Of a stretch of 13,264 nt of DNA, positions 1 through 12,946 are shown one piece after another (position 1 is the stretch's first letter; each line of letters begins with the position of its first letter). Origin of the DNA: Patescibacteria group bacterium (GTDB taxonomy: Bacteria; Patescibacteriota; Patescibacteriia; 2-01-FULL-39-33); the NCBI GenBank assembly GCA_041662745.1, contig JBAZRV010000010.1:1-13264 (forward strand), in the 5' to 3' direction. Below the pieces are notes generated by a model. It was not told the DNA's origin, did no database searches, and was given only the letters and a program-made list of their open reading frames with translations. Both the position numbers and the translations under genes were made by a program.

Positions 1-102
1 GTCTACACCATTCTCGCGCCCAAACAGAAAGAATCGGTCTTCCAAGTCATCATGAAGAACTTCGAGGACGTCTTCGGCTGGACCAAACAGCTGAGCAATT
101 AG
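1..102 (+). CDS. 3' end of a CDS truncated by the window edge (hypothetical protein C-terminus ...FEDVFGWTKQLSN*)
   Basis: Frame 1 is open from base 1 to TAG at 100-102. A strong hairpin terminator follows about 30 nt downstream. No family is recognisable from 33 residues. Confidence 0.5.
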   Translation, partial: VYTILAPKQKESVFQVIMKNFEDVFGWTKQLSN

Positions 103-133
103 CCCGAAACGGACGGAAACTTATTTGCAAATA

Positions 134-161
134 AAAATAACAGCCACGGGACTGTTATTTT
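134..161. terminator. Bidirectional rho-independent terminator
   Basis: Stem aaaaataacag (134-144) pairs with ctgttattttt (151-161). T-tracts follow on both strands. It closes the plus-strand CDS ending at 102 and the minus-strand tRNA-Ser/element A unit. Confidence 0.65.
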
Positions 162-171
162 TATTATTTTG

Positions 172-187
172 CGGAGAGAGGGGGATT
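172..187 (-). repeat. Displaced duplicate of the tRNA-Ser 3' end (T-loop AAT through the discriminator base); direct repeat of 392-407
   Basis: cggagagagggggatt at 172-187 is identical to 392-407, which is the 3' 16 nt of the intact tRNA-Ser. Confidence 0.9.
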
Positions 188-336
188 TACTCGCTCACTC
201 GGCGCCAAAAAGCGCCTCATTCACTTGTCCAAGGTAGCCGCCAAACGCTCTTGATGGTCGCGTTTGTCGTCGCTCAATTATTCGGCTCGGCTTCTGCCTC
301 GCCTCATATCTCGCTCGCTACCTGTTCGAATCCGCC
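188..336 (-). ncRNA. Unclassified structured RNA-like element, copy A
   Basis: Homologous to 10017-10160. The first 27 nt (cgctcactcggcgccaaaaagcgcctc) are identical, then one mismatch, then 12 more identical nt. Helices (plus-strand coordinates): 233-238/317-322, 242-248/260-266, 284-291/296-303 and 201-205/212-216. Three of these covary with copy B. Read on the minus strand, one hairpin is GGC-GA-GGC-AGAA-GCC-GA-GCC, that is tandem G.A pairs plus a tetraloop. It lies between tRNA-Ser and the terminator at 134-161, so read-through from the tRNA could express it. Confidence 0.55.
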
Positions 337-391
337 ATTTTCAAACGGTATTTTTTTATGACGGTAAAAAACCGTCTTAAAAAAATATTTT

Positions 392-478
392 CGGAGAGAG
401 GGGGATTCGAACCCCCGAGGGCTTTGACACCCTACTCGCTTTCCAAGCGAGCGCACTCGACCACTATGCGATCTCTCC
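392..478 (-). tRNA. tRNA-Ser, anticodon GGA, class II with long variable arm, no encoded CCA
   Basis: The minus-strand sequence folds by hand into a cloverleaf. Acceptor stem GGAGAGA/TCTCTCC. D stem GCAT/GTGC with GG in the loop. Anticodon stem CTCGC/GCGAG with loop TTGGAAA. Variable arm AGGG..CCCT. T arm GGGGG-TTCGAAT-CCCCC. Discriminator G. Confidence 0.95.
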
Positions 479-480
479 AG

Positions 481-509
481 ATAAAAGGATGCTCTTCATG
501 GGGCATCCT
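481..509 (-). terminator. Rho-independent terminator downstream of the zinc-ribbon gene pair
   Basis: Stem aggatgc (486-492) pairs with gcatcct (503-509). On the minus strand it is followed by ttttat. Confidence 0.55.
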
Positions 510-515
510 GTTTTA

Positions 516-806
516 CTAACGCCGTTTAAGCCACCTCTTGAGTGAAATAAACCACGCTCCGACAGAACTAAATCCTACGGTGAGGGGGTAATCGGGCTGA
601 GCCACATTGCCCTGCTTCCATTGTTGGACCTTACGGCTATGGCAATACGGGCACCTATTAGCAAAAAGACCGAGGGACTTAAAAAAACTGCCGCAACCAT
701 GGCAAGAAAACTGTTTCCTTTTTAAAAATCCCCTGCTCACGCCGATAGACAAAAGCGAACCGGCCAAGACTAATAAGCAAACAAAAATCGTTAGCGCATA
801 AATCAT
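516..806 (-). CDS. Small membrane-anchored zinc-ribbon protein (N-terminal TM helix; CHGC...CPYC)
   Basis: 96-aa ORF. GGAGGT Shine-Dalgarno sits 6 nt upstream of the ATG. Hydrophobic N-terminus IFVCLLVLAGSLLSIGV. Two CxxC knuckles and a basic C-terminus. Starts 4 nt after the stop of the upstream paralog. Confidence 0.6.
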   Translation of the reverse strand: MIYALTIFVCLLVLAGSLLSIGVSRGFLKRKQFSCHGCGSFFKSLGLFANRCPYCHSRKVQQWKQGNVAQPDYPLTVGFSSVGAWFISLKRWLKRR

Positions 807-810
807 GGAA

Positions 811-1005
811 TTACCTCCGTCGCCGCAGACTTTGCGGATGTTTGAATTGGCGTTGTTTCCCCCGCCTGACTATAACATCACCTTTTCTGCGGCAATAAGG
901 ACAGACCGCGCCGAGGCGGACAGCAACCTTGAAACGCATATCGCAAAGCCAGCAATAAGCATCCAGCCTGGAATCGTGACTGTTCTTTTTCGCAACTTTA
1001 CCCAT
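811..1005 (-). CDS. Small basic zinc-ribbon protein (CWLC...CPYC)
   Basis: 64-aa ORF. GGGAGA Shine-Dalgarno sits 6 nt upstream of the ATG. Two CxxC knuckles, and the second (CPYC) is shared with the downstream ORF. Promoter lies upstream at 1067-1095. Confidence 0.55.
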   Translation of the reverse strand: MGKVAKKNSHDSRLDAYCWLCDMRFKVAVRLGAVCPYCRRKGDVIVRRGKQRQFKHPQSLRRRR

Positions 1006-1066
1006 GATTTTTCTCCCTGTCTCAAAAGACGTTGCGATTTAAAAAAAGTGCAAAAAGCGTAAATGT

Positions 1067-1095
1067 ATTATACAGTAAAAAACTGAAAATGTCCA
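1067..1095 (-). promoter_or_regulatory. Sigma70-type promoter for the zinc-ribbon gene pair
   Basis: Minus strand reads TGGACA (1090-1095), 17 nt spacer, TATAAT (1067-1072). Confidence 0.5.
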
Positions 1096-1099
1096 GCAT

Positions 1100-1128
1100 A
1101 AAAAACCGCCCCGGTTAGCGGAGCGGTT
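1100..1128 (-). terminator. Rho-independent terminator of the thioredoxin-like gene
   Basis: Stem aaccgc (1104-1109) pairs with gcggtt (1123-1128), with inner ccg/cgg pairs. A run of six T follows on the minus strand. Confidence 0.6.
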
Positions 1129-1141
1129 TACCCTGATAGAA

Positions 1142-1753
1142 TTATTTTAAGGCATCAATGGCGGCATTAAGCTCGGCGGCTTCTTTGGTTAAATCATTCT
1201 GCGCTTCATAACCGTTGCCGACACGAAAATACTTGCAACCCATGACAAACGTGGGAATTGATCCCTCGGGATTAAATTCCTGATAAACAGCTAAGGCCTC
1301 AGCCGGCACTTCAGTTTCTACGGCCGTGGTTAAAGTATTGTCTCCGGTGTCAACTTCCCAATGGTAGGCCTTGATCTTTCCGGCCTTAACCGCGTCAGCA
1401 ACTACCTTGTCAAAGGTCGGCTTAACCCATTCGCAATGCGGGCACCAAGTGGTAGAGAATAAATAAACCACCGGCTTACCGCCTTCTTTACAAACAACAG
1501 CGTCTTTCTTTTCTAGGAAAGTTGAAATGCCGGCAGCGGTCGGCTTGATTGATTCCGGGGCGCTTCCGACGGGCTGAGTCGTCTGAGCCGTTTGATCAGT
1601 CAAAACATCTGTTTTAGCCGAATTAACGTTTTGTCCTTTAACCATGACTATTGCCATGATAATCATGCCAATAACGGCAATAACGGCAATGCCGGCAAAA
1701 AGCCCTAATAAAAATTGCTGATCTTTTAATAAACCTTTGTTTTCGCCTTCCAT
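1142..1753 (-). CDS. Membrane-anchored thioredoxin-fold thiol:disulfide oxidoreductase (WCPHC active site)
   Basis: 203-aa ORF. One N-terminal TM helix (LLGLFAGIAVIAVIGMIIMAIVMV), a low-complexity linker, then a thioredoxin-like domain with a CPHC motif. Confidence 0.75.
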   Translation of the reverse strand: MEGENKGLLKDQQFLLGLFAGIAVIAVIGMIIMAIVMVKGQNVNSAKTDVLTDQTAQTTQPVGSAPESIKPTAAGISTFLEKKDAVVCKEGGKPVVYLFSTTWCPHCEWVKPTFDKVVADAVKAGKIKAYHWEVDTGDNTLTTAVETEVPAEALAVYQEFNPEGSIPTFVMGCKYFRVGNGYEAQNDLTKEAAELNAAIDALK

Positions 1754-1782
1754 AAAATTAAAAATTATTTTTAGGTAATGAT

Positions 1783-1811
1783 ATTATAGCTTTTTATTAA
1801 ACATAAAGCAA
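1783..1811 (-). promoter_or_regulatory. Sigma70-type promoter for the thioredoxin-like gene
   Basis: Minus strand reads TTGCTT (1806-1811, abutting the gatA stop), 17 nt spacer, TATAAT (1783-1788). Confidence 0.5.
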
Positions 1812-3272
1812 CTATTTTATCCCTGGTTTCTGTTTATGCCAATCCGTGGCCAATTGGTATTGATGGCCGACGCGCAAAACAGTCTTCTCAGCAAAGCGCT
1901 TGCCTAATAACTGGATGCCCACGGGCAGATTGTCAGCCAGACCGGCGGGGATAGTCAAACCGCAAATGCCGGCCAACGAGGCGGGAATAGTAAAAACGTC
2001 GGCTAAATACATCTTCAGCGGATCATTGATATTCTCCCCCAACTTGAAAGCGGGGGTCGGCGCAACCGGGGTCAAAATAACATCAACCTGCTCAAACGCC
2101 TGATCAAAATCCTCACACACTAAAGTGCGGATTTGCATGGCCTTCTTGTAGTAAGCATCATAATAGCCGGCCGATAAAGCATAGGTGCCGATCATAATGC
2201 GACGCTTGACTTCGGAACCGAAACCCTCGGCGCGAGTGTTAATGTAGATATCCAACAGATCTCCGGATTGCTTGGACAGGCCATAACGAATGCCGTCGTA
2301 GCGCGCCATATTGGAAGATACCTCCGACGGGCAGATAATGTAATAGGCGGCCACGGCCAAATCCGTATGGGGCAAGGAAATATCAATAACTTCAGCGCCC
2401 AACTCCTCCAATTTTTTTGCGGCTTCAAGAACGCGATCGCGTACGCCCACATCCATACCCTCAACAAAATACTCTTTGGGCAACCCGATTTTCAATCCCT
2501 TGATATTCTTTTTGATTTCTTCCGGATAATTATCCACGCTGATATTGGGCGTGGTAGAATCTTTTTCATCGCGTCCGGCCAAGTATTTCATGATCAGCGC
2601 GATATCTTCAACGTTTTTACCAAACGGGCCAATAGTATCCAAAGATGAAGTCATGGCCATCGCGCCATAGCGGGAAACACGGCCGTAAGTCACCTTCAAG
2701 CCGGACACGCCACAAAACGAAGCGGGTTCGCGGATAGAGCCGCCGGTATCCGAGCCGAGCGCATAAAAACACATATCGGCAGAAACAGCCGCAGCCGAAC
2801 CGCCCGATGAACCGCCGGGTACGCGATTCAAATCCCAGGGATTATGGGTCGGAAAAAAACCGGAATTTTCGGTTGATCCGCCCATGGCGAACTCATCCAA
2901 ATTGGTTTTGCCCAAGATCACCGCGCCCTCATCGCGCAACTTTTTGACGGCAGTGGCATCAAACGGCGGAATATAATTCTCTAAAATTTTTGAAGCGGCC
3001 GTACTGCGCAATCCCTTAGTGCAAAATATATCCTTGATAGCTACGGGTATGCCGGCTAAGGGAGAAATACTGTCCTCCGTCTGCAATAATTTATCAGCGG
3101 CCTCGGCCTGCGCCAACGCCTCCTCTTCATTTAAAGTCAAAAAAGCTTTAATTTTTTCGTCTTGGTTTTTGATTCGCTCAAAACAAGCCGCGGTCAATTC
3201 CCGGCTGGTGAATTTCTTTTCTCTCAGGCCGGCAAAGGCTTCAAGCAGTGTTAGTTTATTTAAATCAGGCAT
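1812..3272 (-). CDS. gatA: Glutamyl-tRNA(Gln)/aspartyl-tRNA(Asn) amidotransferase subunit A
   Basis: Amidase signature GGSSGGSAAAV and full-length GatA-like sequence. The ORF track starts at a TTG at 3326. I prefer the ATG at 3272 (MPDLNKLTLLEA...), which matches the usual GatA N-terminus and avoids overlap with gatC. Confidence 0.9.
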   Translation of the reverse strand: MPDLNKLTLLEAFAGLREKKFTSRELTAACFERIKNQDEKIKAFLTLNEEEALAQAEAADKLLQTEDSISPLAGIPVAIKDIFCTKGLRSTAASKILENYIPPFDATAVKKLRDEGAVILGKTNLDEFAMGGSTENSGFFPTHNPWDLNRVPGGSSGGSAAAVSADMCFYALGSDTGGSIREPASFCGVSGLKVTYGRVSRYGAMAMTSSLDTIGPFGKNVEDIALIMKYLAGRDEKDSTTPNISVDNYPEEIKKNIKGLKIGLPKEYFVEGMDVGVRDRVLEAAKKLEELGAEVIDISLPHTDLAVAAYYIICPSEVSSNMARYDGIRYGLSKQSGDLLDIYINTRAEGFGSEVKRRIMIGTYALSAGYYDAYYKKAMQIRTLVCEDFDQAFEQVDVILTPVAPTPAFKLGENINDPLKMYLADVFTIPASLAGICGLTIPAGLADNLPVGIQLLGKRFAEKTVLRVGHQYQLATDWHKQKPGIK

Positions 3273-3312
3273 AATATTGGCAAACAAAGCATTAACGTAT
3301 AAAAACGCAAAA

Positions 3313-3606
3313 TTACTTATTCTCAAATACCTTGGGGATCACGATATAGCCATCGCGGCTAACCGGTGCGCAAGCCACCAATTCCTCGCTGATGCCCGAT
3401 TCAATAATGCGGTCTTCGCGACTGATATTGACCAATCCGGTTACCTGAGAAGTCGGCTCCACCGTCGAGGTGTCTACGGCCTGCAAAGCATCAACATATT
3501 CAAGAATTCCGGACAACTGTTCGGCGTATCGGGCCTTTTCTTGGGCCGTCAGATTAAGGCGCGCCAACTTGGCGATATGCTCTACTTGTTCTATGGTTAA
3601 TTTCAT
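3313..3606 (-). CDS. gatC: Glutamyl-tRNA(Gln)/aspartyl-tRNA(Asn) amidotransferase subunit C
   Basis: MKLTIEQVEHIAKLARLNLT... is a typical GatC N-terminus. About 97 aa and immediately upstream of gatA. I chose the start at ATG 3606 rather than the ORF-track start at 3651. Confidence 0.85.
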   Translation of the reverse strand: MKLTIEQVEHIAKLARLNLTAQEKARYAEQLSGILEYVDALQAVDTSTVEPTSQVTGLVNISREDRIIESGISEELVACAPVSRDGYIVIPKVFENK

Positions 3607-3622
3607 AAATTTAGATACAAAA

Positions 3623-3651
3623 ATATTACCACCGAAGCGGAAATAAATCAA
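3623..3651 (-). promoter_or_regulatory. Sigma70-type promoter for gatCA
   Basis: Minus strand reads TTGATT (3646-3651), 17 nt spacer, TAATAT (3623-3628). Confidence 0.45.
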
Positions 3652-3668
3652 GGCTGGAATAAACGCGT

Positions 3669-5900
3669 TTAAGCCTTCCGGCTAACCCGGCCGGCCGGCT
3701 TATCGGCCGCTTTCATTCTGACCGTAAAAGTCGTTCCCCGGCCTTCCTGGCTGTCAAAAGTCACAGAACTGCCGTCATGAGCCTCAATAATGCGTTTAAC
3801 TATGAACAATCCCAAACCGGATCCGTCGGCATACATGTCTACGGCGTTTTTGGCACGGGAAAACTTATCAAACATTTTATCCTTATCCGCCTGCGGTATG
3901 CCGATGCCCGTATCTGCCACCTCCACCGCCAAGTAATCGCCGTCCTGTTTTAGGGATAGGGTTACCGATCCCTTGGCCGTATATTTAATGGCATTATCCA
4001 CCAGATTATACAGCGCCTGTTCCAGAAAATCGGCGCTGGTCATGACCGGAGACAGTTTTTTTGGCGGTAAAACCAGATTAAGTTTCAATCCTTTACTGAC
4101 CGCCAACTCATCAAGATCGCCGTGAATTGATTTCAAAATGTCTTCCAGTTGCATTGGTTTGGCCGTCAAAGGATCAATTTTAAACTCTTCGGTATCCACT
4201 TCGGAAGCGCGTAAAATATCGCCGATAATGACATTAAGCTTTTCCGCTTTATGATAAATATTATCAAAAAACTTTTTCTTTTCCGCCTCCGGCAATTTAT
4301 CCATGGAACCGTCACGGAACATGGAAATCGTGCCCTTAATGACTGAGACCGGCGTTTTAAGCTGATGGCTGGCAATATCCAAGAACTCGGAACGCATTTC
4401 CAATAATTTCTGCAAGTGTTCGGCACGATGCAACAGTTCTTGCGTCTGTTCATCAACTTTTTTCTGTAATACTCTATTAAAATTTTTGGTTTCTTGGTAA
4501 AGCCGGGCATTATCAATGGCGACAGCCGCTTGCAATGAAAGCGTGAAAAGCAAATTAAGATCCTCTTCGGTATAGGGATCGCCGGAACCCTTAGCGCCCA
4601 AAACGATTATACCCATTAATTTCCCCGATTTCAGCAGAGGCAGGCACAAGGAAGCCTCAATATGATGCATTTCCTTTTCCAGGGCCAGCAAGGATTTTTT
4701 TTCCTTATCGGTTTTAGCATCCCGAGCCAAAAGGAATAATTCCTCTCGCACCAACGGTTTGGCTATTTGCTTCAAATATTTGGTAAAAAAACTGTCTTGC
4801 ACCAAAGATATGCCGTTAGTAATATTGAAGCCGGTTACTTTGGCGATTCTATAATTGACTGCGGAGCCGTCATTCTCCGCCAAAAGCACGCCCGCCCTAT
4901 CCAGCCCCATGGTTTTTTTAATGGTGCCAACTATTAGGTTTATTATCTTATCAAGATCATTATAGTAATTAAGTTCGCGAGTCAATCCGGATATGGTCTT
5001 CTGATAATCATAAAGGGAATAGAAAAAATATTTATTGACAAAATCAGAAAACAACCTATGAAAACTGAACATTAGCAAGACAAATAACGGCGCCACCACG
5101 ATACCGGCCAAAATCGTATAATTGCTATATAGGCTGCCCCACAGATAGGGATAAACGATGATGATGACTGAATAGAAAAGATAAACAAAAATAGAATCGG
5201 CGCCGTAGACGACAAACCATCTGGCTATCACTCGCATATCCATTAACCGATATTTTAAAATAGCATAAGAAATAATGATAGTGAAAATCAATCCTGACAA
5301 ATAAGAGAAAGGATAGATGCTGATGCCGTAAGCCGGAAGATAGGCGGTTGGACCGATAGTGAACAAAACCAAAAAGGCGATAAAAAAATACTTGATCTGA
5401 TATTTAAGCAAGGCGGAATCAACTTTCTTGTAGTATCTGTAAACCTCAAAAAACCAAAAGACTACGTAAGAGCTGAAATAAACCAAGAAAAAATGATGGA
5501 ATAATCTGGCTTTGGTGTGGACTCCCCACTTATAATAAAAAGCGTCAGCCACAAAATAATCGGTACGGCTGACGATTAAGAAAAATATTGATAAAAAATA
5601 AGCAAAAAACAACCAAAAATTAGCCTTGCGATTAGTCAGAGCTAAGCAGAAATGATACATGAATGCCGGAATAAACACTACCGATCCATAAATGAAACGA
5701 TCCCAATAAATCGCTGACGTGATATCGTCGCGATTTAAAAACATCATAAAAGTGCCAAACAGCCAGAGAGAGATAACCAGGGCATGCAAAGCAAAAGTGA
5801 AATTCAAGCGGTTCTTGGGATTTCTTAATAATACTAACCCGCCAAGAATAAAAACGAAGATGGCGCTGATTAGCGGATATAATGTCGGCAAGCTCATCAT
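3669..5900 (-). CDS. Sensor histidine kinase: N-terminal multi-TM sensor domain, GAF domain, HisKA, HATPase_c
   Basis: 743 aa. About 290 N-terminal residues are strongly hydrophobic with multiple TM helices. A central GAF-like region follows. H-box SHQLKTP, N-box DNAIKYT, G1 DTGIGI, F-box FDKFSR, G2 GSGLGL. Confidence 0.88.
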   Translation of the reverse strand: MMSLPTLYPLISAIFVFILGGLVLLRNPKNRLNFTFALHALVISLWLFGTFMMFLNRDDITSAIYWDRFIYGSVVFIPAFMYHFCLALTNRKANFWLFFAYFLSIFFLIVSRTDYFVADAFYYKWGVHTKARLFHHFFLVYFSSYVVFWFFEVYRYYKKVDSALLKYQIKYFFIAFLVLFTIGPTAYLPAYGISIYPFSYLSGLIFTIIISYAILKYRLMDMRVIARWFVVYGADSIFVYLFYSVIIIVYPYLWGSLYSNYTILAGIVVAPLFVLLMFSFHRLFSDFVNKYFFYSLYDYQKTISGLTRELNYYNDLDKIINLIVGTIKKTMGLDRAGVLLAENDGSAVNYRIAKVTGFNITNGISLVQDSFFTKYLKQIAKPLVREELFLLARDAKTDKEKKSLLALEKEMHHIEASLCLPLLKSGKLMGIIVLGAKGSGDPYTEEDLNLLFTLSLQAAVAIDNARLYQETKNFNRVLQKKVDEQTQELLHRAEHLQKLLEMRSEFLDIASHQLKTPVSVIKGTISMFRDGSMDKLPEAEKKKFFDNIYHKAEKLNVIIGDILRASEVDTEEFKIDPLTAKPMQLEDILKSIHGDLDELAVSKGLKLNLVLPPKKLSPVMTSADFLEQALYNLVDNAIKYTAKGSVTLSLKQDGDYLAVEVADTGIGIPQADKDKMFDKFSRAKNAVDMYADGSGLGLFIVKRIIEAHDGSSVTFDSQEGRGTTFTVRMKAADKPAGRVSRKA

Positions 5901-5933
5901 TTTTTTGAAAAAATAATATTTACCACTCTAAAT

Positions 5934-5962
5934 ATTATAACACATTTATAAACTCTAAACAA
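5934..5962 (-). promoter_or_regulatory. Sigma70-type promoter for the histidine kinase gene (extended -10)
   Basis: Minus strand reads TTGTTT (5957-5962), 17 nt spacer, TGtTATAAT (-10 hexamer at 5934-5939). Confidence 0.5.
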
Positions 5963-5971
5963 AATCAGATG

Positions 5972-6002
5972 AAAAAGAGCCGTCTCCCGAAAGAGACGGC
6001 TC
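5972..6002 (-). terminator. Rho-independent terminator of the reductase-like gene
   Basis: 10-bp stem gagccgtctc (5977-5986) pairs with gagacggctc (5993-6002). Loop is ccgaaa. TTTTT follows on the minus strand. Confidence 0.7.
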
Positions 6003-6016
6003 ATAGAACGTGCTTG

Positions 6017-7081
6017 TCAGTTGACTGGTGGCAAGAAAAAACCAATTTCCTCCGCCGCCCGCCAAGTTTCATCCAGTCTTTGCAAGTCAACCGGACCGAC
6101 TTCATGGAATTGCCACTCCTTGAAGGAGTGGATGAAGGTGCCGGCGTGACAGGCATAAGTGATGCCCGGCTTCAGCCTCATCGTAAAGTGGATATCAACT
6201 TTCTGAGGATCGTAGGCCAACAATCCGCCTTCAAAATGCTTGATATCCGGGCGCGCCCGAAAATCACGCTTTTTGAGAGGATTGGGCACGGCGAAATTCA
6301 GCACCACGGCATCATCCGGAATGTGTTTGTATAAATCTCTGCGGGAAGGAATGGCCTTACCCGTGATCCACAACTGGCATGACGACCCCCAGCTCAAGGA
6401 GTTTGTCCACTCCAATTTATCGGAACAGTCGCCCGCTTCCTTAGCGATGCTTTGAAACCGTTCCAAATCTTGAGTGTACATCAACACCCTGACTCCGCGC
6501 CGAGCCAAATCAATGGCCACGGCTCGACCGATCTTTGAAGTTGATCCGGTCAGGAAAACCGGTCCCTTGATTTGATACTTCTCAATCAGGGCCAGGGCCT
6601 GCCGAATAACCGTTGCCGCGGTCAAGGTATCGCCATGGACTATCCAAGCCCATAAACGGTCGGATAACTCCTTGACGATCCAAGATCCTCCGTCAGTTAT
6701 CCTAATGTCTTTGATCAGAGCACCTAAGCCGATGACCTTGACTCCCTTTCTCTGAAGTTCAAGAACGGCGTCCAGGATTCGTTTCTTGATGCCGTTTCGG
6801 CGCGTCGGCAAAAAAAAGTGCCAACCGAAATTGCGCAACAGAACGGTCCGGCAGTCAATTTCTTCTCCGGCCGGCGTCTTAAACACAAATCTGTCAACCG
6901 TATCAAACGGCTTTTTTCCGACAAGATACTTCACCGACATCACCCAGCACATCGGGTAGAGCCAAAAAAACCAATAACGCCATTCCGGATGCCGGTGGAG
7001 GCAAGAGAATGGCCAAAGCAGCCAGTTCCAGCTTTCCACCCAGTGAGCCAAAAACGCCATTTTCCGTTCATTCGTTTCCAT
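6017..7081 (-). CDS. NAD(P)-binding Rossmann oxidoreductase resembling the long-chain acyl-ACP reductase family, with a Trp-rich hydrophobic N-terminal extension
   Basis: 354 aa. GGAG Shine-Dalgarno sits 9 nt upstream of the ATG. Dinucleotide-binding motif TGSTSKIGRAV. The C-terminal block ITYACHAGTFIHSFKEW...VDLQRLDETWRAAEEIGF parallels, from my memory of it, the cyanobacterial acyl-ACP reductase block containing the catalytic Cys (FACFAEAMLLEFEGW...). The family assignment rests on recollection and is not a search result. Confidence 0.5.
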   Translation of the reverse strand: METNERKMAFLAHWVESWNWLLWPFSCLHRHPEWRYWFFWLYPMCWVMSVKYLVGKKPFDTVDRFVFKTPAGEEIDCRTVLLRNFGWHFFLPTRRNGIKKRILDAVLELQRKGVKVIGLGALIKDIRITDGGSWIVKELSDRLWAWIVHGDTLTAATVIRQALALIEKYQIKGPVFLTGSTSKIGRAVAIDLARRGVRVLMYTQDLERFQSIAKEAGDCSDKLEWTNSLSWGSSCQLWITGKAIPSRRDLYKHIPDDAVVLNFAVPNPLKKRDFRARPDIKHFEGGLLAYDPQKVDIHFTMRLKPGITYACHAGTFIHSFKEWQFHEVGPVDLQRLDETWRAAEEIGFFLPPVN

Positions 7082-7155
7082 GGCTTATAACTCCTATGTT
7101 GTAACGTTTGTTGTAACGTTCAAGTGTTAAAACCGGCAACTTACCGATTAGTAAT

Positions 7156-7198
7156 ATAATATCATATTAGCGTTATTTTGTCAATAGAATTATCCACA
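7156..7198 (-). promoter_or_regulatory. Promoter cassette copy 1: TGTGGATAA (DnaA-box-like), TTGACA, 17 nt spacer, TATTAT
   Basis: Minus strand reads GTGGATAATTctaTTGACAAAATAacgCTaATATGATATTAT. -35 at 7179-7184, -10 at 7156-7161, ttatccaca at 7190-7198. Near-identical to 8905-8947. Confidence 0.6.
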
Positions 7199-7207
7199 GG
7201 CTACTAC

Positions 7208-7235
7208 TTGACAAATTTTTTACATATGGTATAAT
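7208..7235 (+). promoter_or_regulatory. Sigma70-type promoter with extended -10 for the small membrane protein gene
   Basis: TTGACA (7208-7213), 16 nt spacer, TGgTATAAT (-10 hexamer at 7230-7235). Divergent from the 7156-7198 promoter. Confidence 0.65.
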
Positions 7236-7299
7236 GTAAACATGTTGGAACATTCAATCTAATAGCGTAGCAATACGCAAACCAAGAAGGATGAGAAAA

Positions 7300-7530
7300 A
7301 TGAAAACTTTGCAAGAGATCACGATGCGTTTGCTGGGAGCAGTTGGTGGCGCGGTTTTCGGGTTGGTGGTCCTGGCCTATTTCTTTATTTCCGCCCTGGC
7401 GGACTACCGGAATTGCTGGCTGGGATGGAAAGACACGGCCAAGGGCTTGGCTGGCTGGGCGGTTTTCATTATCGCCGCCATCGGCTACTACCCCGTTATG
7501 GCTGTGGAACACGTAGTCAACGGCGACTAA
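7300..7530 (+). CDS. Small two-TM membrane protein (hypothetical)
   Basis: The ORF 7291-7530 has an AAGGA Shine-Dalgarno best spaced (8 nt) for the ATG at 7300. Two hydrophobic helices (LLGAVGGAVFGLVVLAYFFI and WAVFIIAAIGYYPVMAV). It has its own consensus promoter and terminator. Confidence 0.6.
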   Translation: MKTLQEITMRLLGAVGGAVFGLVVLAYFFISALADYRNCWLGWKDTAKGLAGWAVFIIAAIGYYPVMAVEHVVNGD

Positions 7531-7555
7531 ACCGTCGGCGGATAAACATGCACCG

Positions 7556-7590
7556 AAGATCGGCGAGCATTCAGCTTGCCGATCTTTTTA
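7556..7590 (+). terminator. Rho-independent terminator of the small membrane protein gene
   Basis: Stem aagatcggc (7556-7564) pairs with gccgatctt (7578-7586), followed by ttttaatttatttt. Confidence 0.7.
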
Positions 7591-7599
7591 ATTTATTTT

Positions 7600-7629
7600 A
7601 AAAGCCGGCGTCCATTTATGAACGCCGGC
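7600..7629 (-). terminator. Rho-independent terminator of the FadL-like gene
   Basis: Stem gccggcgt (7604-7611) pairs with acgccggc (7622-7629). TTTT follows on the minus strand. Confidence 0.65.
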
Positions 7630-7651
7630 GCAAAGATGCAAAGGACTCGGA

Positions 7652-8821
7652 TTAGAACCTCCAGCTTCCGGAAAGGCCGAAAGTCAAGATCTCGGTTGAC
7701 ATTTTTCTTCCGGAAACCTCATTGCTTCCCCAGCCGTAACTAGTGGAAGCAATCAAGCTGAAATGCTTAGTCGGCGAATACTTGATCCGTCCACCGAGAG
7801 CCCAGCCATCAACGTCAGGCGTCATATAGTCAGCCGTCTTGGTAATGGCCTTGCTCATGTAAGTCACCCCGCCGCCGGCCGTTAACTTGTCGCTGAACTT
7901 ATGGCTGGCGCCCAAATGAATGGCGATATTGTCCTGCCAATTCATGTTGACCGCTTTGGTAATCGGCAATTTATCAAAATTCACCATGGCTCGGTTCAAA
8001 CTATTCCGACTATATCCGAAATAAGTTACTTGACCGACCAATAGCCAATCTTCCCGTGGCTGATAACCGACGGAAAAATCAACTTTTTCGGGGAACTTGA
8101 ATTTCAAGTCAATGCCATCGCGTATTTTTAGCCCCAATAAACCGGCGGTGCAACGGCCTTCAAGTCTTACCGTAACCGGCGAAAGATAATTGACGCCGAA
8201 CGCCAGTTTATCCGTCGCTTGATACATAGCGCCTGCTTGCCAGCCATAACCAAAACCCAAAGCCTTCAGGTTAACCCGAACCGGCAAAGGTATGCGACTT
8301 ACATCAAACGGTCCGACCCAAGTCATCATGCCCATGGCAATAACCGGGCCAGCGCCGATTGACAAGCGATCAGTCAGCTGCTTGGAAATAAATGGCTTGA
8401 TATAGGTTCCGGACACAAGCGTCTGAGAATCCATGCCGTACCAAATATTCTTGAAGCTGGCGCCCAGGCCGTAGTTGGTGTGGATGTCCACGCCCCAGAC
8501 GGTTGACTCGTCAATCCTCTCGGCATAAGAAACCGCCGGCAGGACATGAGCCATATTCTTGGAAGTAAACTTTTTGCCGCGCTTATCCTCATAAGTGAAT
8601 TTGGGGACCATGACTTCGGTCCCCACCTCAACCAAGCGCTTGCCATTCAATTGCAACTTACTCCCCAGATTATGGGGAAACCACATTCCCGACGGATCGG
8701 ATCCCAGTCCGATATCGGTCGTGCCGGTCGCCGCCACGCGACTCAAGCCGCCAGCAAACGCCGACTGATCAAGACACAAAAAAATAGCAAAGACAACCGC
8801 GATAATAACGCTTTTCTTCAT
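7652..8821 (-). CDS. Outer-membrane beta-barrel protein, FadL/OmpP1/TodX-like (hydrophobic-compound transporter family)
   Basis: I chose the start at ATG 8821 (MKKSVIIAVVFAIFLCLDQSAFA, a signal peptide), with AGGAGA 6 nt upstream. The sequence shows an alternating beta-strand pattern rich in G/Y/S/T and a terminal ...LSGSWRF aromatic signature typical of OMPs. The FadL-family call comes from overall length and pattern and is not a search result. Confidence 0.55.
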   Translation of the reverse strand: MKKSVIIAVVFAIFLCLDQSAFAGGLSRVAATGTTDIGLGSDPSGMWFPHNLGSKLQLNGKRLVEVGTEVMVPKFTYEDKRGKKFTSKNMAHVLPAVSYAERIDESTVWGVDIHTNYGLGASFKNIWYGMDSQTLVSGTYIKPFISKQLTDRLSIGAGPVIAMGMMTWVGPFDVSRIPLPVRVNLKALGFGYGWQAGAMYQATDKLAFGVNYLSPVTVRLEGRCTAGLLGLKIRDGIDLKFKFPEKVDFSVGYQPREDWLLVGQVTYFGYSRNSLNRAMVNFDKLPITKAVNMNWQDNIAIHLGASHKFSDKLTAGGGVTYMSKAITKTADYMTPDVDGWALGGRIKYSPTKHFSLIASTSYGWGSNEVSGRKMSTEILTFGLSGSWRF

Positions 8822-8904
8822 CTCAGTTCTCCTCATTTTTATCCCCAAGGGGATGATCTTATGTACTAAAGGCATTCAAACAACATAGTTTATGCCAATA
8901 TATA

Positions 8905-8947
8905 ATTATATCATATCAGTGATATTTTGTCAAGACAATTATCCACA
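8905..8947 (-). promoter_or_regulatory. Promoter cassette copy 2: TGTGGATAA (DnaA-box-like), TTGACA, 17 nt spacer, TATAAT
   Basis: Minus strand reads GTGGATAATTgtcTTGACAAAATAtcaCTgATATGATATAAT. -35 at 8928-8933, -10 at 8905-8910, ttatccaca at 8939-8947. Confidence 0.6.
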
Positions 8948-8950
8948 ACT

Positions 8951-8979
8951 AAAAATCGTCGCAATAAGCGACGATTTTT
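8951..8979 (-). terminator. Rho-independent (bidirectional-looking) terminator of the 306-aa gene
   Basis: Stem atcgtcgc (8955-8962) pairs with gcgacgat (8968-8975). It is flanked by A5 and T4 tracts. Confidence 0.65.
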
Positions 8980-8994
8980 CTAACATTTTAATTA

Positions 8995-9912
8995 TTATTT
9001 TGATTTAAACCAGCTTTTAACCTTCTGCCAACCGCGCCGGATAATCCCTTCACCCGTCTCGGATGAAGCCGTTGAAGAAATGTATTCTCCCACCTGATTC
9101 TCTTTGATTGAGGACTTTAAAACATCATGCGCCCTCTGCCTGATACCGGCATACTCGGGCAAAGAGGCGGCATTGGCCTTAAAAGCGGCCTCGGATTTTT
9201 GTTCCAAATCCTTACCTCGCAAAGATAAGAAATCAGGATGTTCCCCATCCCCTTTTAGTGTCGGGGCTTTAACATGCTCCATCATTAAATCCAAGGCTTG
9301 CTCCATGTCCGATCCTTCGTACAGATCCTTTCCCTCCCTAATCGGTTGAACTTTCTTAACAACTTTTTCCAGCTGGCTTATATTGAAACTATGCTCCACC
9401 GCCTGCGTTAGGTATTGCAATTTATATTCCTCAAATTTTTCCCGATGCCGGTTGTATCTCTCGGCCAACAGCCCCTTGACAATCTCTCTGACTTTTTGCC
9501 TTAGCTGCAAATCACGGCCGCGGGTGATTAAATCGGTTTTTTCGCCCAAAACTTTCCTTTCCGTTTCGTAGGCCCCGCTGATTGAGCCCAAAACTATCTT
9601 ATCCAAATTATCCTTCAGGTATTTTTCCGCTTCAGCAATTTTCCCGACAATATATTCCGGCGGAAAAAAATCCTTAGAACCCTGAATGCCCTTGGTTTTA
9701 GAAACGGCCTGGCGTAAATCCTCTAACGATTTCGCTTCGTCAATTGCCTTTTTTAATTTCTCTAATTTTTTACTATTTTCATATTGAGACAACTTCTCCT
9801 CATAGGCCTCATCGTCTAAAAAGGACTCACCGCCGAATTCCTGATCTATTATCGGCTCATCTACTTCTTGGCTGGTGAACGGTTTAGATTCCTGATTTTT
9901 GTTCCTAATCAT
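8995..9912 (-). CDS. Hypothetical soluble, highly charged (K/E-rich, likely helical) protein
   Basis: Long ORF. The ORF-track start at 9954 is a TTG. The first ATG is at 9912 (MIRNKNQESK...). No recognisable domain, TM helix or signal peptide. The start is uncertain. Confidence 0.55.
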   Translation of the reverse strand: MIRNKNQESKPFTSQEVDEPIIDQEFGGESFLDDEAYEEKLSQYENSKKLEKLKKAIDEAKSLEDLRQAVSKTKGIQGSKDFFPPEYIVGKIAEAEKYLKDNLDKIVLGSISGAYETERKVLGEKTDLITRGRDLQLRQKVREIVKGLLAERYNRHREKFEEYKLQYLTQAVEHSFNISQLEKVVKKVQPIREGKDLYEGSDMEQALDLMMEHVKAPTLKGDGEHPDFLSLRGKDLEQKSEAAFKANAASLPEYAGIRQRAHDVLKSSIKENQVGEYISSTASSETGEGIIRRGWQKVKSWFKSK

Positions 9913-9978
9913 ATGATTATAGATTAAACGCCAAAAGGCATAAAAACTAAACAAATAGCGGAACTGGACTTGAAACTA

Positions 9979-10004
9979 AATTGGTTTTAATATTTACTAG
10001 CACG
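9979..10004. repeat. 26-nt direct repeat flanking element B (copy 1)
   Basis: aattggttttaatatttactagcacg is identical to 10191-10216. Confidence 0.9.
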
Positions 10005-10016
10005 GGGTGAAGGAAT

Positions 10017-10160
10017 TACGCGCTCACTCGGCGCCAAAAAGCGCCTCGTTCACTTGTCCAGGGTCAGCGCCAATCATTATCAATGATTGGCGACGCTCGA
10101 CTGCTCTTTTCGCCTTCCGGCTCAAAGCTTGTCTCGCTTCTGACCTGTTCGATTCTCGCC
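10017..10160 (-). ncRNA. Unclassified structured RNA-like element, copy B
   Basis: Homolog of 188-336. Helices (plus-strand coordinates): 10062-10067/10140-10145, 10068-10076/10084-10092, 10106-10114/10119-10127 and 10030-10034/10041-10045. Read on the minus strand, one hairpin is CTTT-GA-GCC-GGAA-GGC-GA-AAAG, that is tandem G.A pairs plus a GNRA tetraloop. Confidence 0.55.
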
Positions 10161-10163
10161 CCG

Positions 10164-10192
10164 ATATTAAATATTTAAAACCAACTTGATAA
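10164..10192 (-). promoter_or_regulatory. Candidate promoter for element B
   Basis: Minus strand reads TTATCA (10187-10192), 17 nt spacer, TAATAT (10164-10169). This places a start about 7 nt downstream, at the beginning of the conserved GAATCGAACAGG block. The -35 is weak. Confidence 0.35.
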
Positions 10193-10216
10193 TTGGTTTT
10201 AATATTTACTAGCACG
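10191..10216. repeat. 26-nt direct repeat flanking element B (copy 2)
   Basis: Identical to 9979-10004. A degenerate third copy (aattggtttt..ttact) lies at 10266-10280. Confidence 0.9.
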
Positions 10217-10438
10217 AATTGCTGGATTAGAATGGAACCCGTTTATCCGTTTAATCCGTAATGTTAATTGGTTTTTTACTGACTTTGATTTTGACAGATT
10301 CTACGCCACAATCTAATAAAGAATTACTGCTTTTTTAGCCAAGAGTATACTTATGTGATTCTTACCAGACATGACCAGTTTAAGGCGATTAAAAGACACT
10401 AGATGAACAAGATGACCTCTTAATGGTTTAGATTGCCC

Positions 10439-12013
10439 CTAACTTACTGGCTGAGTATAATTATTTTGGCTATTAGATGAATAGGATTGGGAAAATGCCA
10501 GATAACCCATTAATATTAAATTTAACGGAGCAACTATCATTAGAAGTCCAAGCCATTTGGATTTACCTAGTTTTTCAGTTATATCCATCCATGGAACAAG
10601 GGCGACTATAATGTTAGCTATAGGAACAAACATTAGTAGGAACCACCAATACGGTCTGCCTGCGCATTTCAATATTAAGAAAAGATTAGCGATTGGCACC
10701 CAAGCCATCCAAAGACCATTAATTACTAATTTTTTAGCGATAAATTGCAGGCATAGGGCACAATAAACATATAGCAGAAGAAAAAGAATAATAATTATGA
10801 CAACGAAATATCCACCAAAATCAGATATAATCGTATTAGCTAAGGCGTTAAATGAGCTGGTAGTATTTATTGGTTCAACTACTGCTGGCACTATAATGTC
10901 GGTAGCCGTTGAATTTATGATATCAGCCGTAGGCGTAGCCACTAAATTATTAATATCATCGGTGCTGGAAATTGGAGTATTTCCAGCCGATGCCATCTGA
11001 CCTGCCAATACTACTTGCGTTGGTGTAAATTTTCCATCGCCAACTGGATTAAAGCCGCCATAAATCTCAGTCATATCGCCATAACCATCGCCATCAGTGT
11101 CAAATTTATTCGGATCAGTGCCCCATTTGGCTTCATTAACATCAAGTAAACCATCACCATCAGTGTCAATTAGGTTGCCGACTGACATGCAAATAGATGC
11201 GCAACTGTTGCTTTGACATGGCGTAATCTTTTCCCATTTGCAATCTTTAGTTAAAAATGCAATGCCAGTTTTTCCCTCGGGAGTTTTGTGGCAATAATAT
11301 CCGTCGCTTTTCTCACAACTCTTAGTGCAATAAGCATGGCCATACGTGTCGGGTAAAATCTCGCATAAACCTGGACACTTAATATCCTCACTTGCGACAG
11401 TGCCATTTGGTAGGCAATATCTTTCTGTTATCGTCTGTGGTTCAAGTCCGCAAGTATCTGATATATTTTCTATTTTGCCGTTAATTGTGATGATTCCAGC
11501 TTTAAAAATATCCTTGCCTCCGTCGGAATCAGTACAAGTACTACCACTTCCACCACTAGCCGTCTTGATACAAGCGCCATTAAGACAGCCATTCGGACAC
11601 TTATATGGGGTTATTTTAATTGTATAATTGCCTGATGAATTTTTACCACAGCTCGTTTCACTGACAGTGCTCTTGTCTGTGCAGGCATCGGCGCCAGTCG
11701 CCTGTTCGCCATTGCCTTTAGCAGAAACTGTGCCTTTGACAAAATAATCCGTTCCGCCATCCGTGTCCGTGCATGTATAGGGAGTACTATCCTCAATACA
11801 GGCTCCATCCTTACAACCGACATAACAAGAGTATGAACTTTCGGCTGCGCCAAATCCGCTACCGATTTCAGCCGCGGATTTTATTGTGCAATCCGTATCC
11901 TGAAAGCCGACATGGTTATTGTCAATACAAACCATTTTCATCTCACAAGTGGCGGCCAGAGCACTGGAGCACAGCAAAAAAATACTTATACTGGCAATAA
12001 TAATTTTTTTCAT
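10439..12013 (-). CDS. Secreted Cys-rich modular protein with thrombospondin-type-3-like Ca-binding repeats, fused to a C-terminal multi-TM domain (DUF5684-like)
   Basis: I chose the start at ATG 12013 (MKKIIIASISIFLLCSSALA, a signal peptide). Repeated modules CTD[TS]DGGxDxF...CPNGCLNGAC. DTDGDGLLD and DTDGDGYGD repeats. The C-terminal region WMAWVPIANLFLILKCAGRPYWWFLLMFVPIANII matches my recollection of the DUF5684 signature. Confidence 0.65.
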   Translation of the reverse strand: MKKIIIASISIFLLCSSALAATCEMKMVCIDNNHVGFQDTDCTIKSAAEIGSGFGAAESSYSCYVGCKDGACIEDSTPYTCTDTDGGTDYFVKGTVSAKGNGEQATGADACTDKSTVSETSCGKNSSGNYTIKITPYKCPNGCLNGACIKTASGGSGSTCTDSDGGKDIFKAGIITINGKIENISDTCGLEPQTITERYCLPNGTVASEDIKCPGLCEILPDTYGHAYCTKSCEKSDGYYCHKTPEGKTGIAFLTKDCKWEKITPCQSNSCASICMSVGNLIDTDGDGLLDVNEAKWGTDPNKFDTDGDGYGDMTEIYGGFNPVGDGKFTPTQVVLAGQMASAGNTPISSTDDINNLVATPTADIINSTATDIIVPAVVEPINTTSSFNALANTIISDFGGYFVVIIIILFLLLYVYCALCLQFIAKKLVINGLWMAWVPIANLFLILKCAGRPYWWFLLMFVPIANIIVALVPWMDITEKLGKSKWLGLLMIVAPLNLILMGYLAFSQSYSSNSQNNYTQPVS

Positions 12014-12023
12014 AGTTGTTAAA

Positions 12024-12872
12024 TTAATTTGGCTTATAAGCCGACATATATAAAACAAACGATAAAGTAGATAAAAATACTAATGCCAATTTCAATTCTT
12101 CTGATGTAAAAGCTGGATTATTTTCAGGAAAAATCGGCCACCTTACTTTCTTTTCTGATGTTAAATTTTTGAAAAAATCAATTAAAGTATTGTCGTCTTG
12201 GTTTTCATTGATATTCTCAAATAATTTAATATCTAAGCCATTTATAGCATATGACCACGCTGGGTGATAAGAATAAGCCTGATTAATATTATTAGCGTTA
12301 TCCGTGATGCTCCAAAATGCGTTTCCAATGATTGCGGGCAAGAAGAAATTGCCAGTGATTTTTCCGATTAATTCCATACTGCCATTAAGCACTAAGTGTT
12401 TAGGAATATCCACAGTCGCCATCTTTGTATTATTTTTTATAAATTCAACTATGCCATTACTTATATTTGCCTGAATGCTGTTATTTGATCCGTCTTTCAA
12501 TAAAAATGAACCATTCAATGATTTACCGCTATTATCAAGAAAACGATATTTTAACTTAAGATGACTCAAGCCAGCGATATTTTGACCGTCATAATAACAG
12601 CATATAGCATCAATATTGACATCTAATAATAATCTACTTGCTTTTGTTATTTGAGCGATATCAAGTAGTCCAGTTTTGTCGAGAATATTACCTTTCAATA
12701 AATTTGTTTTTCCAGAAATAATACTATCTACTCTTGGGATAATGCTGTTTGTCGATTTCTTTAAGGTGCGACCAACCTTGCCCATCCAAATAAATTGGCG
12801 AATAATTATTGCCGCAACTGCAAGCCAGACTAATGAAAATGCAATCAAAAAAAGTATTTCTCCAGTAGACAT
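12024..12872 (-). CDS. Hypothetical membrane-anchored protein (N-terminal TM helix, possible C-terminal TM helix)
   Basis: 282-aa ORF ending 10 nt upstream of the next gene's start. N-rich, low-GC. No recognisable domain and no clear Shine-Dalgarno. Confidence 0.55.
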   Translation of the reverse strand: MSTGEILFLIAFSLVWLAVAAIIIRQFIWMGKVGRTLKKSTNSIIPRVDSIISGKTNLLKGNILDKTGLLDIAQITKASRLLLDVNIDAICCYYDGQNIAGLSHLKLKYRFLDNSGKSLNGSFLLKDGSNNSIQANISNGIVEFIKNNTKMATVDIPKHLVLNGSMELIGKITGNFFLPAIIGNAFWSITDNANNINQAYSYHPAWSYAINGLDIKLFENINENQDDNTLIDFFKNLTSEKKVRWPIFPENNPAFTSEELKLALVFLSTLSFVLYMSAYKPN

Positions 12873-12941: not shown

Positions 12942-12946
12942 AAATC

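Follow-up and report, generated by a model that had tools for sequence, protein, structure and literature searches.

What kind of DNA can lie between an intact tRNA gene and a second copy of that gene's own 3′ end, when only about 200 bp separate the two copies? The question is raised by one end of the window, the whole stretch of DNA analysed here, which is a complete contig of 13,264 nt. An intact tRNA-Ser(GGA) gene occupies positions 392–478 on the minus strand (391/392–478/479 according to ARAGORN and Rfam; RF00005, 58.5 bits); CCA is not encoded in this gene, whereas it is encoded in the tRNA-Ser of the relatives with which it was compared. The 16-mer CGGAGAGAGGGGGATT has exactly two occurrences in the window, at 172–187 and 392–407, against a chance expectation of ~0.01 matches even with two mismatches allowed. 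On the tRNA strand it reads AAUCCCCCUCUCUCCG and corresponds to tRNA-Ser from nt 58 to the discriminator, as an initial annotation of this DNA had proposed and as the ARAGORN and Rfam placements confirm.

Read in the orientation of the tRNA, the locus has a simple order. The tRNA ends in the first copy of the repeat, termed X (392–407, minus strand; nt 58–73, comprising the 3′ part of the T-loop, the 3′ strands of the T-stem and acceptor stem, and the discriminator). Next come a 51-nt AT-rich spacer, Y (341–391, minus strand), and a GC-richer module of ~150 nt, module A (188–340, minus strand). The second X (172–187, minus strand), a displaced or duplicated tRNA 3′ end, follows directly, and an A-tract/hairpin/T-tract terminator (133–162, no strand assigned) closes the arrangement. 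The terminator, annotated initially at 134–161, is real (−15.8 kcal/mol, z = −6.9). The hairpin annotated at 360–376 also exists, but is merely the tip of a longer AT-rich hairpin (345–386) that, with a short linker, makes up Y; this hairpin has the polarity T-run/hairpin/A-run and hence is not a terminator. The interval between the repeats (188–391) measures 204 bp, and its ORFs are all short, non-conserved and overlapping the tRNA, in agreement with the earlier description of the interval as ORF-less. The arrangement is identical in k141_1154648 (L014/L041), an ENA contig assembled independently from the same population.

A direct repeat at both junctions and an intact tRNA are the footprint of a classical, tyrosine integrase-borne tRNA island; however, there is no integrase inside the 204 bp and no recurrent gene next to it. 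The initial annotation offered two readings, an ORF-less mini-element mobilised in trans or an island deleted down to an RNA module. Our preferred reading, to which we assign a probability of roughly 50%, is a non-autonomous mini-integrative element: element A would move as a small circle by conservative site-specific recombination, with the recombinase acting in trans.

A structured module beside tRNA genes of Patescibacteria

The module is a nucleic acid with a genuine fold. RNAalifold and pair counting yield five helices over ~150 nt, with standard pairs in 90.7% of the cells of the module alignment versus 30–41% when the partners are slid; compensatory double changes occur at 37 of 39 pairs across 31 module copies, and the observed pairing values were reached by none of 500 shuffles. 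One U-G pair is present in 26 of the 31 copies, and many further G-U pairs accompany it, which marks the tRNA strand as the folded strand. In module A, which scores 158.6 bits with covariance model R1 and shows covariation, helix P2 lies at approximately 231–236/317–322, P4 at approximately 237–271, P3, with its GA loops, has its apex at 289–298, and P5 forms a rod with tandem G.A loops at 191–230. P3 is capped in most copies by a GNRA tetraloop, mostly C[GGAA]G, and P4 mostly ends in CCGGNGG. Both P3 and P5 are built of 2-bp steps parted by near-invariant tandem G.A loops, and the single-stranded junctions GGA.UCGAAC, GGACAA and GAG.GCG are also near-invariant across copies; only the strands of P1 vary with the target. 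The GNRA loop and the tertiary features suggest RNA rather than DNA.

The structured module apparently represents an undescribed RNA or element family in Patescibacteria (CPR bacteria). When both copies of the window and loci L020 and L027 were scanned with Rfam 15, using gathering thresholds and E-values, only tRNA reached threshold and nothing else was credible; among these models, those for tmRNA, group I/II introns, HEARO/omega RNAs, self-cleaving ribozymes and C/D RNAs gave no match to the module. The defining motifs of box C/D RNAs, group I/II introns, retrons, tmRNA and permuted tRNAs are all absent, and these readings were rejected, as was a protein-coding one, since the ORFs that overlap the module show no conservation at the protein level and its pairs covary. 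Nothing matching the module came up in BLAST searches of phage and plasmid collections or in one scan of viral contigs, no sigma-70-type promoter pair was detected on the module strand, and the literature that we searched contained no description of the module or the element.

A degenerate pattern derived from the two copies in the window recovered 11 true loci in species-representative genomes and 15 in metagenome contigs, and model R1 (alignment A4) recovered more than 30 modules; a scan of the window with the model's filters off revealed no degenerate copies beyond A and its second copy, B. All the hosts are Patescibacteria: 'Gammaproteobacteria' titles on five MAG loci are mislabels, the homologues there being exclusively patescibacterial. 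The modules are located 45–64 nt downstream of a tRNA and on its strand, and the module-bearing tRNAs include Ser(GGA), Glu(UUC/CUC), Gly(UCC/GCC), His, Trp, Asn and Asp. The repeating unit consists of Y, module and X, and at least seven kinds of tRNA carry such units of ~200 bp. The layout of direct repeat and intact tRNA holds in L001–L035. The first nucleotide of X is always A58 and the last is the discriminator or C74, which gives 16–17 nt and sometimes a few more, and CCA is missing from X even where the tRNA gene encodes it; the left junction in every case separates GTTCG from A58. Y is nearly always an A-tract/GC-hairpin/T-tract terminator with a sequence that differs from copy to copy, and only 5–25 nt separate it from the module.

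Variations on this frame were observed as well. Six loci (L002, L022, L024, L026, L027 and L029) contain two or three units in tandem, and the modules of one array frequently belong to different lineages. The same frame encloses other cores at tRNA-Tyr (L026, ~50-nt core) and tRNA-Val (L032, ~230-nt core), and a truncated copy is found at tRNA-Cys in L012; with other cores at Tyr, Val and Cys tRNAs in related frames, the module A type thus belongs to a wider class. The right-hand X differs from the neighbouring tRNA in L032 and in the outer L026 module. Truncated remnants occur in L036, at the tRNA-Cys of L012, and in L009 and L023.

Occupied and empty tRNA loci

Comparison with related genomes shows that the elements are polymorphic. 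The closest relatives (83% nucleotide identity) are collinear with the window over 392–9867 only, and collinearity breaks exactly at the tRNA-Ser 3′ end: these genomes carry the same tRNA-Ser with no module, followed by different DNA that includes large serine recombinase genes, the corresponding position being occupied by other islands. True empty sites exist at sister copies of the element. At the DoxX–tRNA-Gly–MFS locus, L038 and L039 are clean empty sites, L036 retains a 32-nt remnant, L005 has one unit and L002 has two; the right-hand X and trailer of L005 equal the tRNA end and native trailer of L036. A further empty site is found at tRNA-Trp (L041). The integration footprint that the initial annotation recognised at tRNA-Ser is thus supported by polymorphism, by further copies (module B in the window itself, and over 30 beside tRNA 3′ ends in other Patescibacteria), and by empty sister sites, all of which favour the ORF-less mini-element mobilised in trans. 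A larger tandem duplication of the tRNA region is absent, because only nt 58–73/74 recur. Neither the circular form, nor the empty locus 2, nor an empty tRNA-Ser joined to the right flank of element A was seen.

That the element is what remains of a large tRNA-integrated island deleted to its terminal RNA gene is very improbable. Serine-recombinase islands do occupy this very tRNA-Ser in relatives, but the same ~200-bp unit recurs with the same boundaries in arrays and beside no fewer than seven tRNA species, and no island-sized version with a module was found; a covariance-model search over 9 kb of the L015 island detected no module. In its layout, element A resembles tRNA-targeting islands and prophages and their integrase-less derivatives, the cis-mobilisable elements (CIMEs): all insert in the T-loop or 3′ half of a tRNA gene with a block of identity that rebuilds the tRNA, accrete in tandem at the same tRNA and, for CIMEs as for the module, are presumably mobilised in trans. 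In contrast to islands and CIMEs, the elements described here measure 200–240 bp rather than kilobases, have no protein gene, consist in their body of one structured RNA, and contain an inverted copy of the T-arm. Casposons, which use a Cas1 integrase, likewise target tRNA 3′ ends and leave 14–15-bp direct repeats; however, they are multi-kilobase elements with terminal inverted repeats, Cas1 and a polymerase, whereas here there is no ORF, the ends are not inverted repeats, and the repeat is 16–17 nt at tRNAs and 2 nt in L040.

The module might alternatively not be selfish at all, but rather a host non-coding RNA gene serving its tRNA, for example in processing, in surveillance or as a decoy, through T-arm antisense pairing and mimicry of the 3′ end, and spread solely by duplication, homologous recombination and DNA uptake. 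In line with such a role, compensatory changes preserve the fold in all lineages, and the module always lies on the tRNA strand with a terminator after it, in streamlined genomes of ~1 Mb. A precedent for the layout is provided by plant dicistronic tRNA-snoRNA genes (cited in PMC12045711), which, like the R2 SIDE elements with junction-spanning ribozymes, place a structured, guide-like RNA just downstream of a stable RNA gene, with probable co-transcription and pairing between element and host RNA across the junction; those systems are, however, eukaryotic and contain box C/D or HDV-like motifs, none of which were found here. We consider a host RNA gene unlikely in view of the presence or absence of modules between near-identical genomes and between close relatives, the different module lineages within tandem arrays, the ectopic copies at non-tRNA sites, the tolerated truncated remnants, and the restriction of modules to only some tRNAs.

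The second copy, the contig joint and the proposed route of movement

The second copy bears on the preferred reading, a mini-element moving as a circle. Module B (10017–10162, minus strand; 5′ strand at 10147–10162) is 77% identical to module A and scores 149 bits with R1. Its X (10000–10016, minus strand) is the exact tRNA-Trp 3′ end (nt 58–74) as found in L015 and L041. The first 21 nt of its Y (10163–10216, minus strand) are the native tRNA-Trp trailer of the strain, and the rest is their complement, with which they form a hairpin. Copy B is flanked by a 26-nt repeat, the left copy of which (10191–10216, minus strand) is part of Y, whereas the right copy (9979–10004, minus strand) combines the last 5 nt of tRNA-Trp with 21 nt of native trailer. 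The repeat is explained by 21 nt of the element that equal the local tRNA-Trp trailer, to which the element is joined in the window; a target duplication of 16–26 nt from a staggered cut was accordingly rejected, the 26-nt repeat of copy B being element-borne trailer and present on one side only in L040.

Copy B also marks a joint in the contig. Positions 1–10016 of the window match ENA contig k141_1154648 with one mismatch in 10,016 nt and positions 10003–13264 match k141_1639906 with none, so that identity switches between the two contigs in a 14-nt overlap (10003–10016, no strand assigned), which is either a recombination joint within X or an assembly joint through the repeat. A third assembly breaks inside the same element B. 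In k141_1154648 (L041; 99.99% identical), the trailer directly follows tRNA-Trp, that is, the site is empty, whereas in k141_1639906 (L040) element B lies within non-tRNA DNA; in L033, module B is followed by X and next by the tRNA-Trp trailer that is native to L015/L017. Thus, near-identical genomes differ at element B. The copy in L040 is circularly permuted: tRNA-Trp C70 is followed by the trailer-like Y, the module and G71, amounting to exactly one 212-bp period plus a shared CG, which is all that its junctions have in common with the tRNA-Trp site, and the junctions fall at nt 70/71 instead of 57/58. A 212-bp circle recombining at CG would yield such a one-unit permuted product.

From anatomy, permutation and polymorphism we infer a circle, a crossover point, an enzyme and expression of the RNA as follows. 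The inserted DNA would comprise one X (nt 58–73/74), the spacer hairpin Y, which in most copies would end the tRNA transcript, and the gene for the ~150-nt tertiary-structured RNA, and would exist transiently as a circle of ~200–220 bp. On integration, the X of the element would recombine with the X of a tRNA gene, which would leave the tRNA intact and place a second X just downstream of the module; there it would pair, as P1, with the antisense 5′ strand of the module, with the native terminator next. For element A, the model predicts an empty site of GGGGGTTCG-AATCCCCCTCTCTCCG-CAAAATAATAAAAATAACAG and a circle junction of GAGTGAGCGAGTA-AATCCCCCTCTCTCCG-AAAATATTTTTTTAAGACGG, although junctions of the circle type are present in tandem arrays too; for B at tRNA-Trp it predicts GGGTTCG-ATTCCTTCACCCCGTGCTAGTAAATATTAAAACCAATT-ATCAAGTTGG, and the uninterrupted locus 2 would read ...CAGCAATT-CG-GGGTCTG..., i.e. 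CAGCAATT-CG-GGGTCTGTAATT.

The recombinase would be supplied in trans. No gene recurs beside the modules in ~40 loci, as judged by all-against-all clustering and Pfam scans of 34 neighbouring ORFs, and any enzyme must therefore act from elsewhere. Apart from housekeeping genes, the neighbouring ORFs comprise a single NYN-domain gene and three large serine recombinases, the latter being the sole mobile-DNA genes in the vicinity; none of the 34 matches the Pfam families of DEDD/RuvC-like and Tnp recombinases, no reverse transcriptase gene was found near modules, and no Y1 transposase was seen. The NYN gene was rejected as a partner, because in L024 a long-form extension is simply fused to the end of the gene. 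The large serine recombinases adjoin the tRNA 3′ end (L016 and L018, at the same tRNA-Ser) or the downstream X (L028), are only 27–30% identical to each other and are unlinked to modules in most loci; their location may just reflect the nature of tRNA flanks as integration hot spots. A 2-bp crossover is a hallmark of serine recombinases and IS110-type enzymes, and the sole mappable crossover, the 2-bp CG inside X that a single event (L040) provides, points to an enzyme of one of these two types. For classical tRNA islands, an identical overlap of 6–8 bp is expected at every insertion, secondary sites included.

Five long-form copies at non-tRNA sites (two in L020, one in L024 and two in L027) keep an RNA-mediated route alive; a small circle could not give rise to them. 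They start at approximately +1 of a decayed tRNA-Glu and finish at the end of X; their 75-nt extension has a constant left boundary in the five loci and aligns to tRNA-Glu. Under such a route, a tRNA co-transcript would be cut at tRNA-like ends and copied into DNA, with nicked tRNA-gene DNA annealed to the X tail as primer and a reverse transcriptase of the host or of a resident element as enzyme, in the manner of SINEs or non-autonomous R2 derivatives. The long forms indeed span tRNA-processing boundaries, X lies at the RNA 3′ end, the right place for a primer-annealing site, and the module lacks a promoter of its own. Nevertheless, retro-mobility seems distinctly unlikely: the tRNA-derived head that would be expected of SINEs is restricted to the five long forms, which have neither A-tails nor target duplications; there is no reverse transcriptase gene nearby; in most copies a strong terminator, Y, stands between tRNA and module; CCA is missing from X even beside CCA-encoding tRNA genes; and the exact one-unit permuted copy of L040 fits a DNA circle better.

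The module 5′ strand and the tRNA T-arm

In every module, the first 11–16 nt are the reverse complement of the adjoining tRNA from G53 on; in module A, this 5′ strand is GGCGGAUUCGAAC (324–336, minus strand), antisense to tRNA-Ser nt 53–62 with a perfect run of 10 nt. The part complementary to nt 58–64 pairs with the downstream X as helix P1, closing the module, with the rest of X as a single-stranded tail, whereas the part complementary to nt 53–57 (UCGAAC) has no partner inside the element. The tRNA nucleotides 53–57, which are matched by the invariant UCGAAC of the module, fall outside the X repeat. Together with Y, the 5′ strand forms a long hairpin with the T-arm of the tRNA, of −35.3 kcal/mol and z = −6.0 in the window. 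Across 20 copies, the perfect antisense run measures 10–15 nt with a mean of 11.0, versus a mean of 7.6 for the tRNAs of other isoacceptor types, and the match persists in copies with a missing or broken downstream X (L009, L023 and, in L002, L022 and L026, the outer modules). The modules of L002 are the only ones with CGGAC instead of CGAAC, and they adjoin the only tRNA with a GTCCG T-loop.

A plain recombinase acting on a circle leaves part of this pattern unexplained, namely, the match of UCGAAC to nt 53–57, the CGGAC/GTCCG pair of L002, the conserved tertiary-type RNA, and the right-hand X mismatches in L032 and the outer module of L026. The UCGAAC match, the L002 covariation and the conserved RNA keep alive an RNA-guided reading, in which the module RNA itself would select the target, in the way of a bridge RNA, for an RNA-dependent recombinase encoded in trans (IS110-, Nop-, Tas-like or other). 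Of the tRNA gene, the sense strand (nt 53–65) would be bound by the 5′ strand and the opposite strand by the X tail, and strands would be exchanged at a 2-nt core. Besides the preference for its own tRNA that persists without the right-hand X and the complementarity reaching beyond the repeat, the compact fold with its GNRA loop and G.A motifs, the putative 2-nt core and the putative circular intermediate would all suit such a system, and by analogy only, the TIGR-Tas paper (PMC12045711) describes, from 'parasitic bacteria', RNA-guided systems related to Nop/IS110 in which pairing involves both strands of the DNA.

Several observations make RNA-guided insertion a tentative alternative that we regard as doubtful. 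No IS110-, Tas- or other candidate gene is present in ~40 loci; the candidate guides are helix ends, whereas those of bridge RNAs are internal loops; no promoter was found, and only 5–25 nt lie between Y and module. T-arms differ by few bases, such that compensatory changes preserving P1 could account for most of the match, and L002 is a single event, for which quasi-palindrome template switching is an alternative source. Resemblance to the bridge (seek) RNAs of IS110/IS1111 resides in the putative circle and 2-nt crossover and in a structured non-coding RNA complementary to the target, which in IS110/IS1111 measures 150–180 nt; yet there is no DEDD recombinase gene within or close to the element, its candidate guides lie in the end strands and not in two internal loops, and it duplicates 16–17 nt of target-identical sequence, all of which places it outside that group. 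It is possible, if doubtful, that the module is a free-standing guide RNA of programmable recombination, by which a protein-less circle of ~200 bp would select its site through pairing with both strands of a T-arm, for a recombinase encoded elsewhere in the genome; as an alternative, the compact RNA could itself catalyse part of the reaction or its own processing.

The other proposal for the internal complement is DNA-based. Element-internal complementarity to the target is the principle of IS608, and a HUH/Y1 enzyme acting in trans, in the style of REPIN-RAYT or the PATEs of IS200/IS605, could mobilise the element as single-stranded DNA, inserting it 3′ of the invariant T-loop GTTCG with the internal CGAAC as a DNA guide for the cleavage site. 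PATEs insert 3′ of a fixed target of 4–5 nt without duplicating it; here every left junction abuts GTTCG, but the junctions of L040 are elsewhere. The folded strand is fixed, the long hairpin between tRNA and 5′ strand has z = −6, and the elements, like REPINs and PATEs, are short, ORF-less, hairpin-rich, present in several copies per genome and would depend on a single trans-acting enzyme. We find this route highly unlikely, however. PATEs and REPINs have conserved subterminal hairpins at both ends, which a Y1 transposase recognises, whereas the Y sequence differs in nearly every copy and would make a poor recognition hairpin; no Y1 transposase accompanies the modules; the L040 junctions lie at nt 70/71; the GNRA loop and tertiary features point to RNA; and REPINs and PATEs display neither tRNA rebuilding nor a conserved tertiary-type RNA.

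Two further systems were compared. CTX-phi-type IMEX, which integrate through a folded single-stranded attP by means of host Xer, also lack an integrase of their own and use paired inverted segments that imitate the target duplex, with the crossover region beside the imitating segments in both cases; CTX-phi, however, is a 7-kb phage at dif, whereas the target here is a tRNA T-arm and the element measures ~200 nt. The omega RNAs of TnpB/IscB, which combine a scaffold with a flank-derived guide directed at the empty but not the occupied site, do not match: the occupied site still contains GTTCG plus X, so that an X-guided nuclease would cut its own locus, and no Rfam match was obtained. X as a nuclease guide was also rejected, as it would target the host's own rebuilt tRNA.

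Overall, the element functions like a tRNA-targeting integrative element and yet falls outside the islands, IS110, PATE/REPIN elements, casposons and all Rfam families with which it was compared. If the preferred reading is correct, it would be the smallest kind of integrative element so far, a gene-less circle of ~200 bp that rebuilds the tRNA it interrupts. It adds a well-supported new structured RNA family, with several copies per genome, to the highly reduced genomes of Patescibacteria, in which mobile DNA and non-coding RNA are little known, and accounts for breaks of synteny and of assembly at tRNA 3′ flanks in these genomes, the window itself being joined across one copy. The target-matching strand makes it testable whether tRNA specificity is set by a guide, of RNA or of DNA, and not by a protein; if so, this would be of practical interest for programmable insertion.

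Contig joint in element B and repeated blocks

The 13,264-nt window constitutes the entire contig and, by sequence comparison, corresponds to two ENA contigs, k141_1154648 over positions 1-10016 (1 mismatch) and k141_1639906 over positions 10003-13264 (0 mismatches). These contigs overlap by just 14 nt (window positions 10003-10016), within X, the repeated tRNA 3' end, of element B, and the joint is either a real recombinant at element B or a chimeric assembly path through the 212-bp repeat.

Elsewhere in the window, a block of 23-43 nt terminating in TTATCCAC(A), which matches the DnaA-box consensus, is present in three copies (2515-2537, 7156-7198, and 8905-8947). Two of the three precede the CER1-like and FadL-like genes, for which they may serve as a common regulatory site. 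Conserved DnaA-box-like CTGTGGATAAC(C/T)TGTG boxes were also observed downstream of tRNA-Cys in three Patescibacteria loci (L003, L011, and L012), and this flanking region may be an origin region.

Locus-specific features and serine recombinases at tRNA ends

The spacer hairpin Y of element A (window 341-391) has the polarity T-run, hairpin, A-run, the inverse of that of a terminator, and in this respect differs from nearly all other copies. The adjacent tRNA-Ser lacks an encoded CCA, which is encoded in the relatives. At the comparison locus L035 (2515-2562), the intact, module-bearing tRNA-Asp is preceded, at a distance of 27 nt, by a 17-nt copy of the tRNA-Asp 5' end (GGAGTGGTAGCTCAGTT), which adds a second rearrangement scar to this tRNA.

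Genes for large serine recombinases converge on the tRNA-Ser 3' end in two relatives of the window, L016 (11223-12881, minus strand) and L018 (11324-12886, minus strand), and on the downstream X in locus L028 (2194-3750, plus strand). In all three, the recombinase ORF extends into the tRNA or the element, and the mutual identity of the three proteins is only 27-30%.

Truncated, extended, and alternative forms of the module

In the tRNA-Gly locus L036 (5390-5475, minus strand), only the linker and GGAGGGGAATCGAAT are left behind a native-type terminator, the remaining module having been lost; truncation on the 3' side was also found in several other copies, those of L009 and L023 and the tRNA-Cys copy of L012. 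In unrelated loci, namely at L002 (2268-2290 and 2505-2525) and at the module 3' ends of L026 and L032, the same GC-rich palindrome, CCTGCCTRCCGKCAGGCAGG, lies between the module 3' end and X; it may be either an optional additional stem or a very small palindromic insertion in its own right.

Long-form copies occupy non-tRNA sites in L020 (870-945 and 2632-2707), L024 (2512-2590, minus strand), and L027 (185-262 and 1790-1869). They carry a conserved extension of ~75 nt that aligns to a decayed tRNA-Glu, and start at ~+1 in every case; in L024, this extension supplies the last 9 codons of an NYN-domain gene.

The frame consisting of terminator, T-arm antisense, core, and X was also found with other cores, of ~50 nt and ~230 nt, as well as in a truncated, remnant form, these variants being located downstream of tRNA-Tyr (9607-9689, minus strand) in L026, tRNA-Val (3496-3570, plus strand) in L032, and tRNA-Cys (2292-2366, plus strand) in L012, and at L037 (1-60). 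The presence of other cores and a truncated remnant within the same frame indicates that tRNA-3'-end modules form a wider superfamily.
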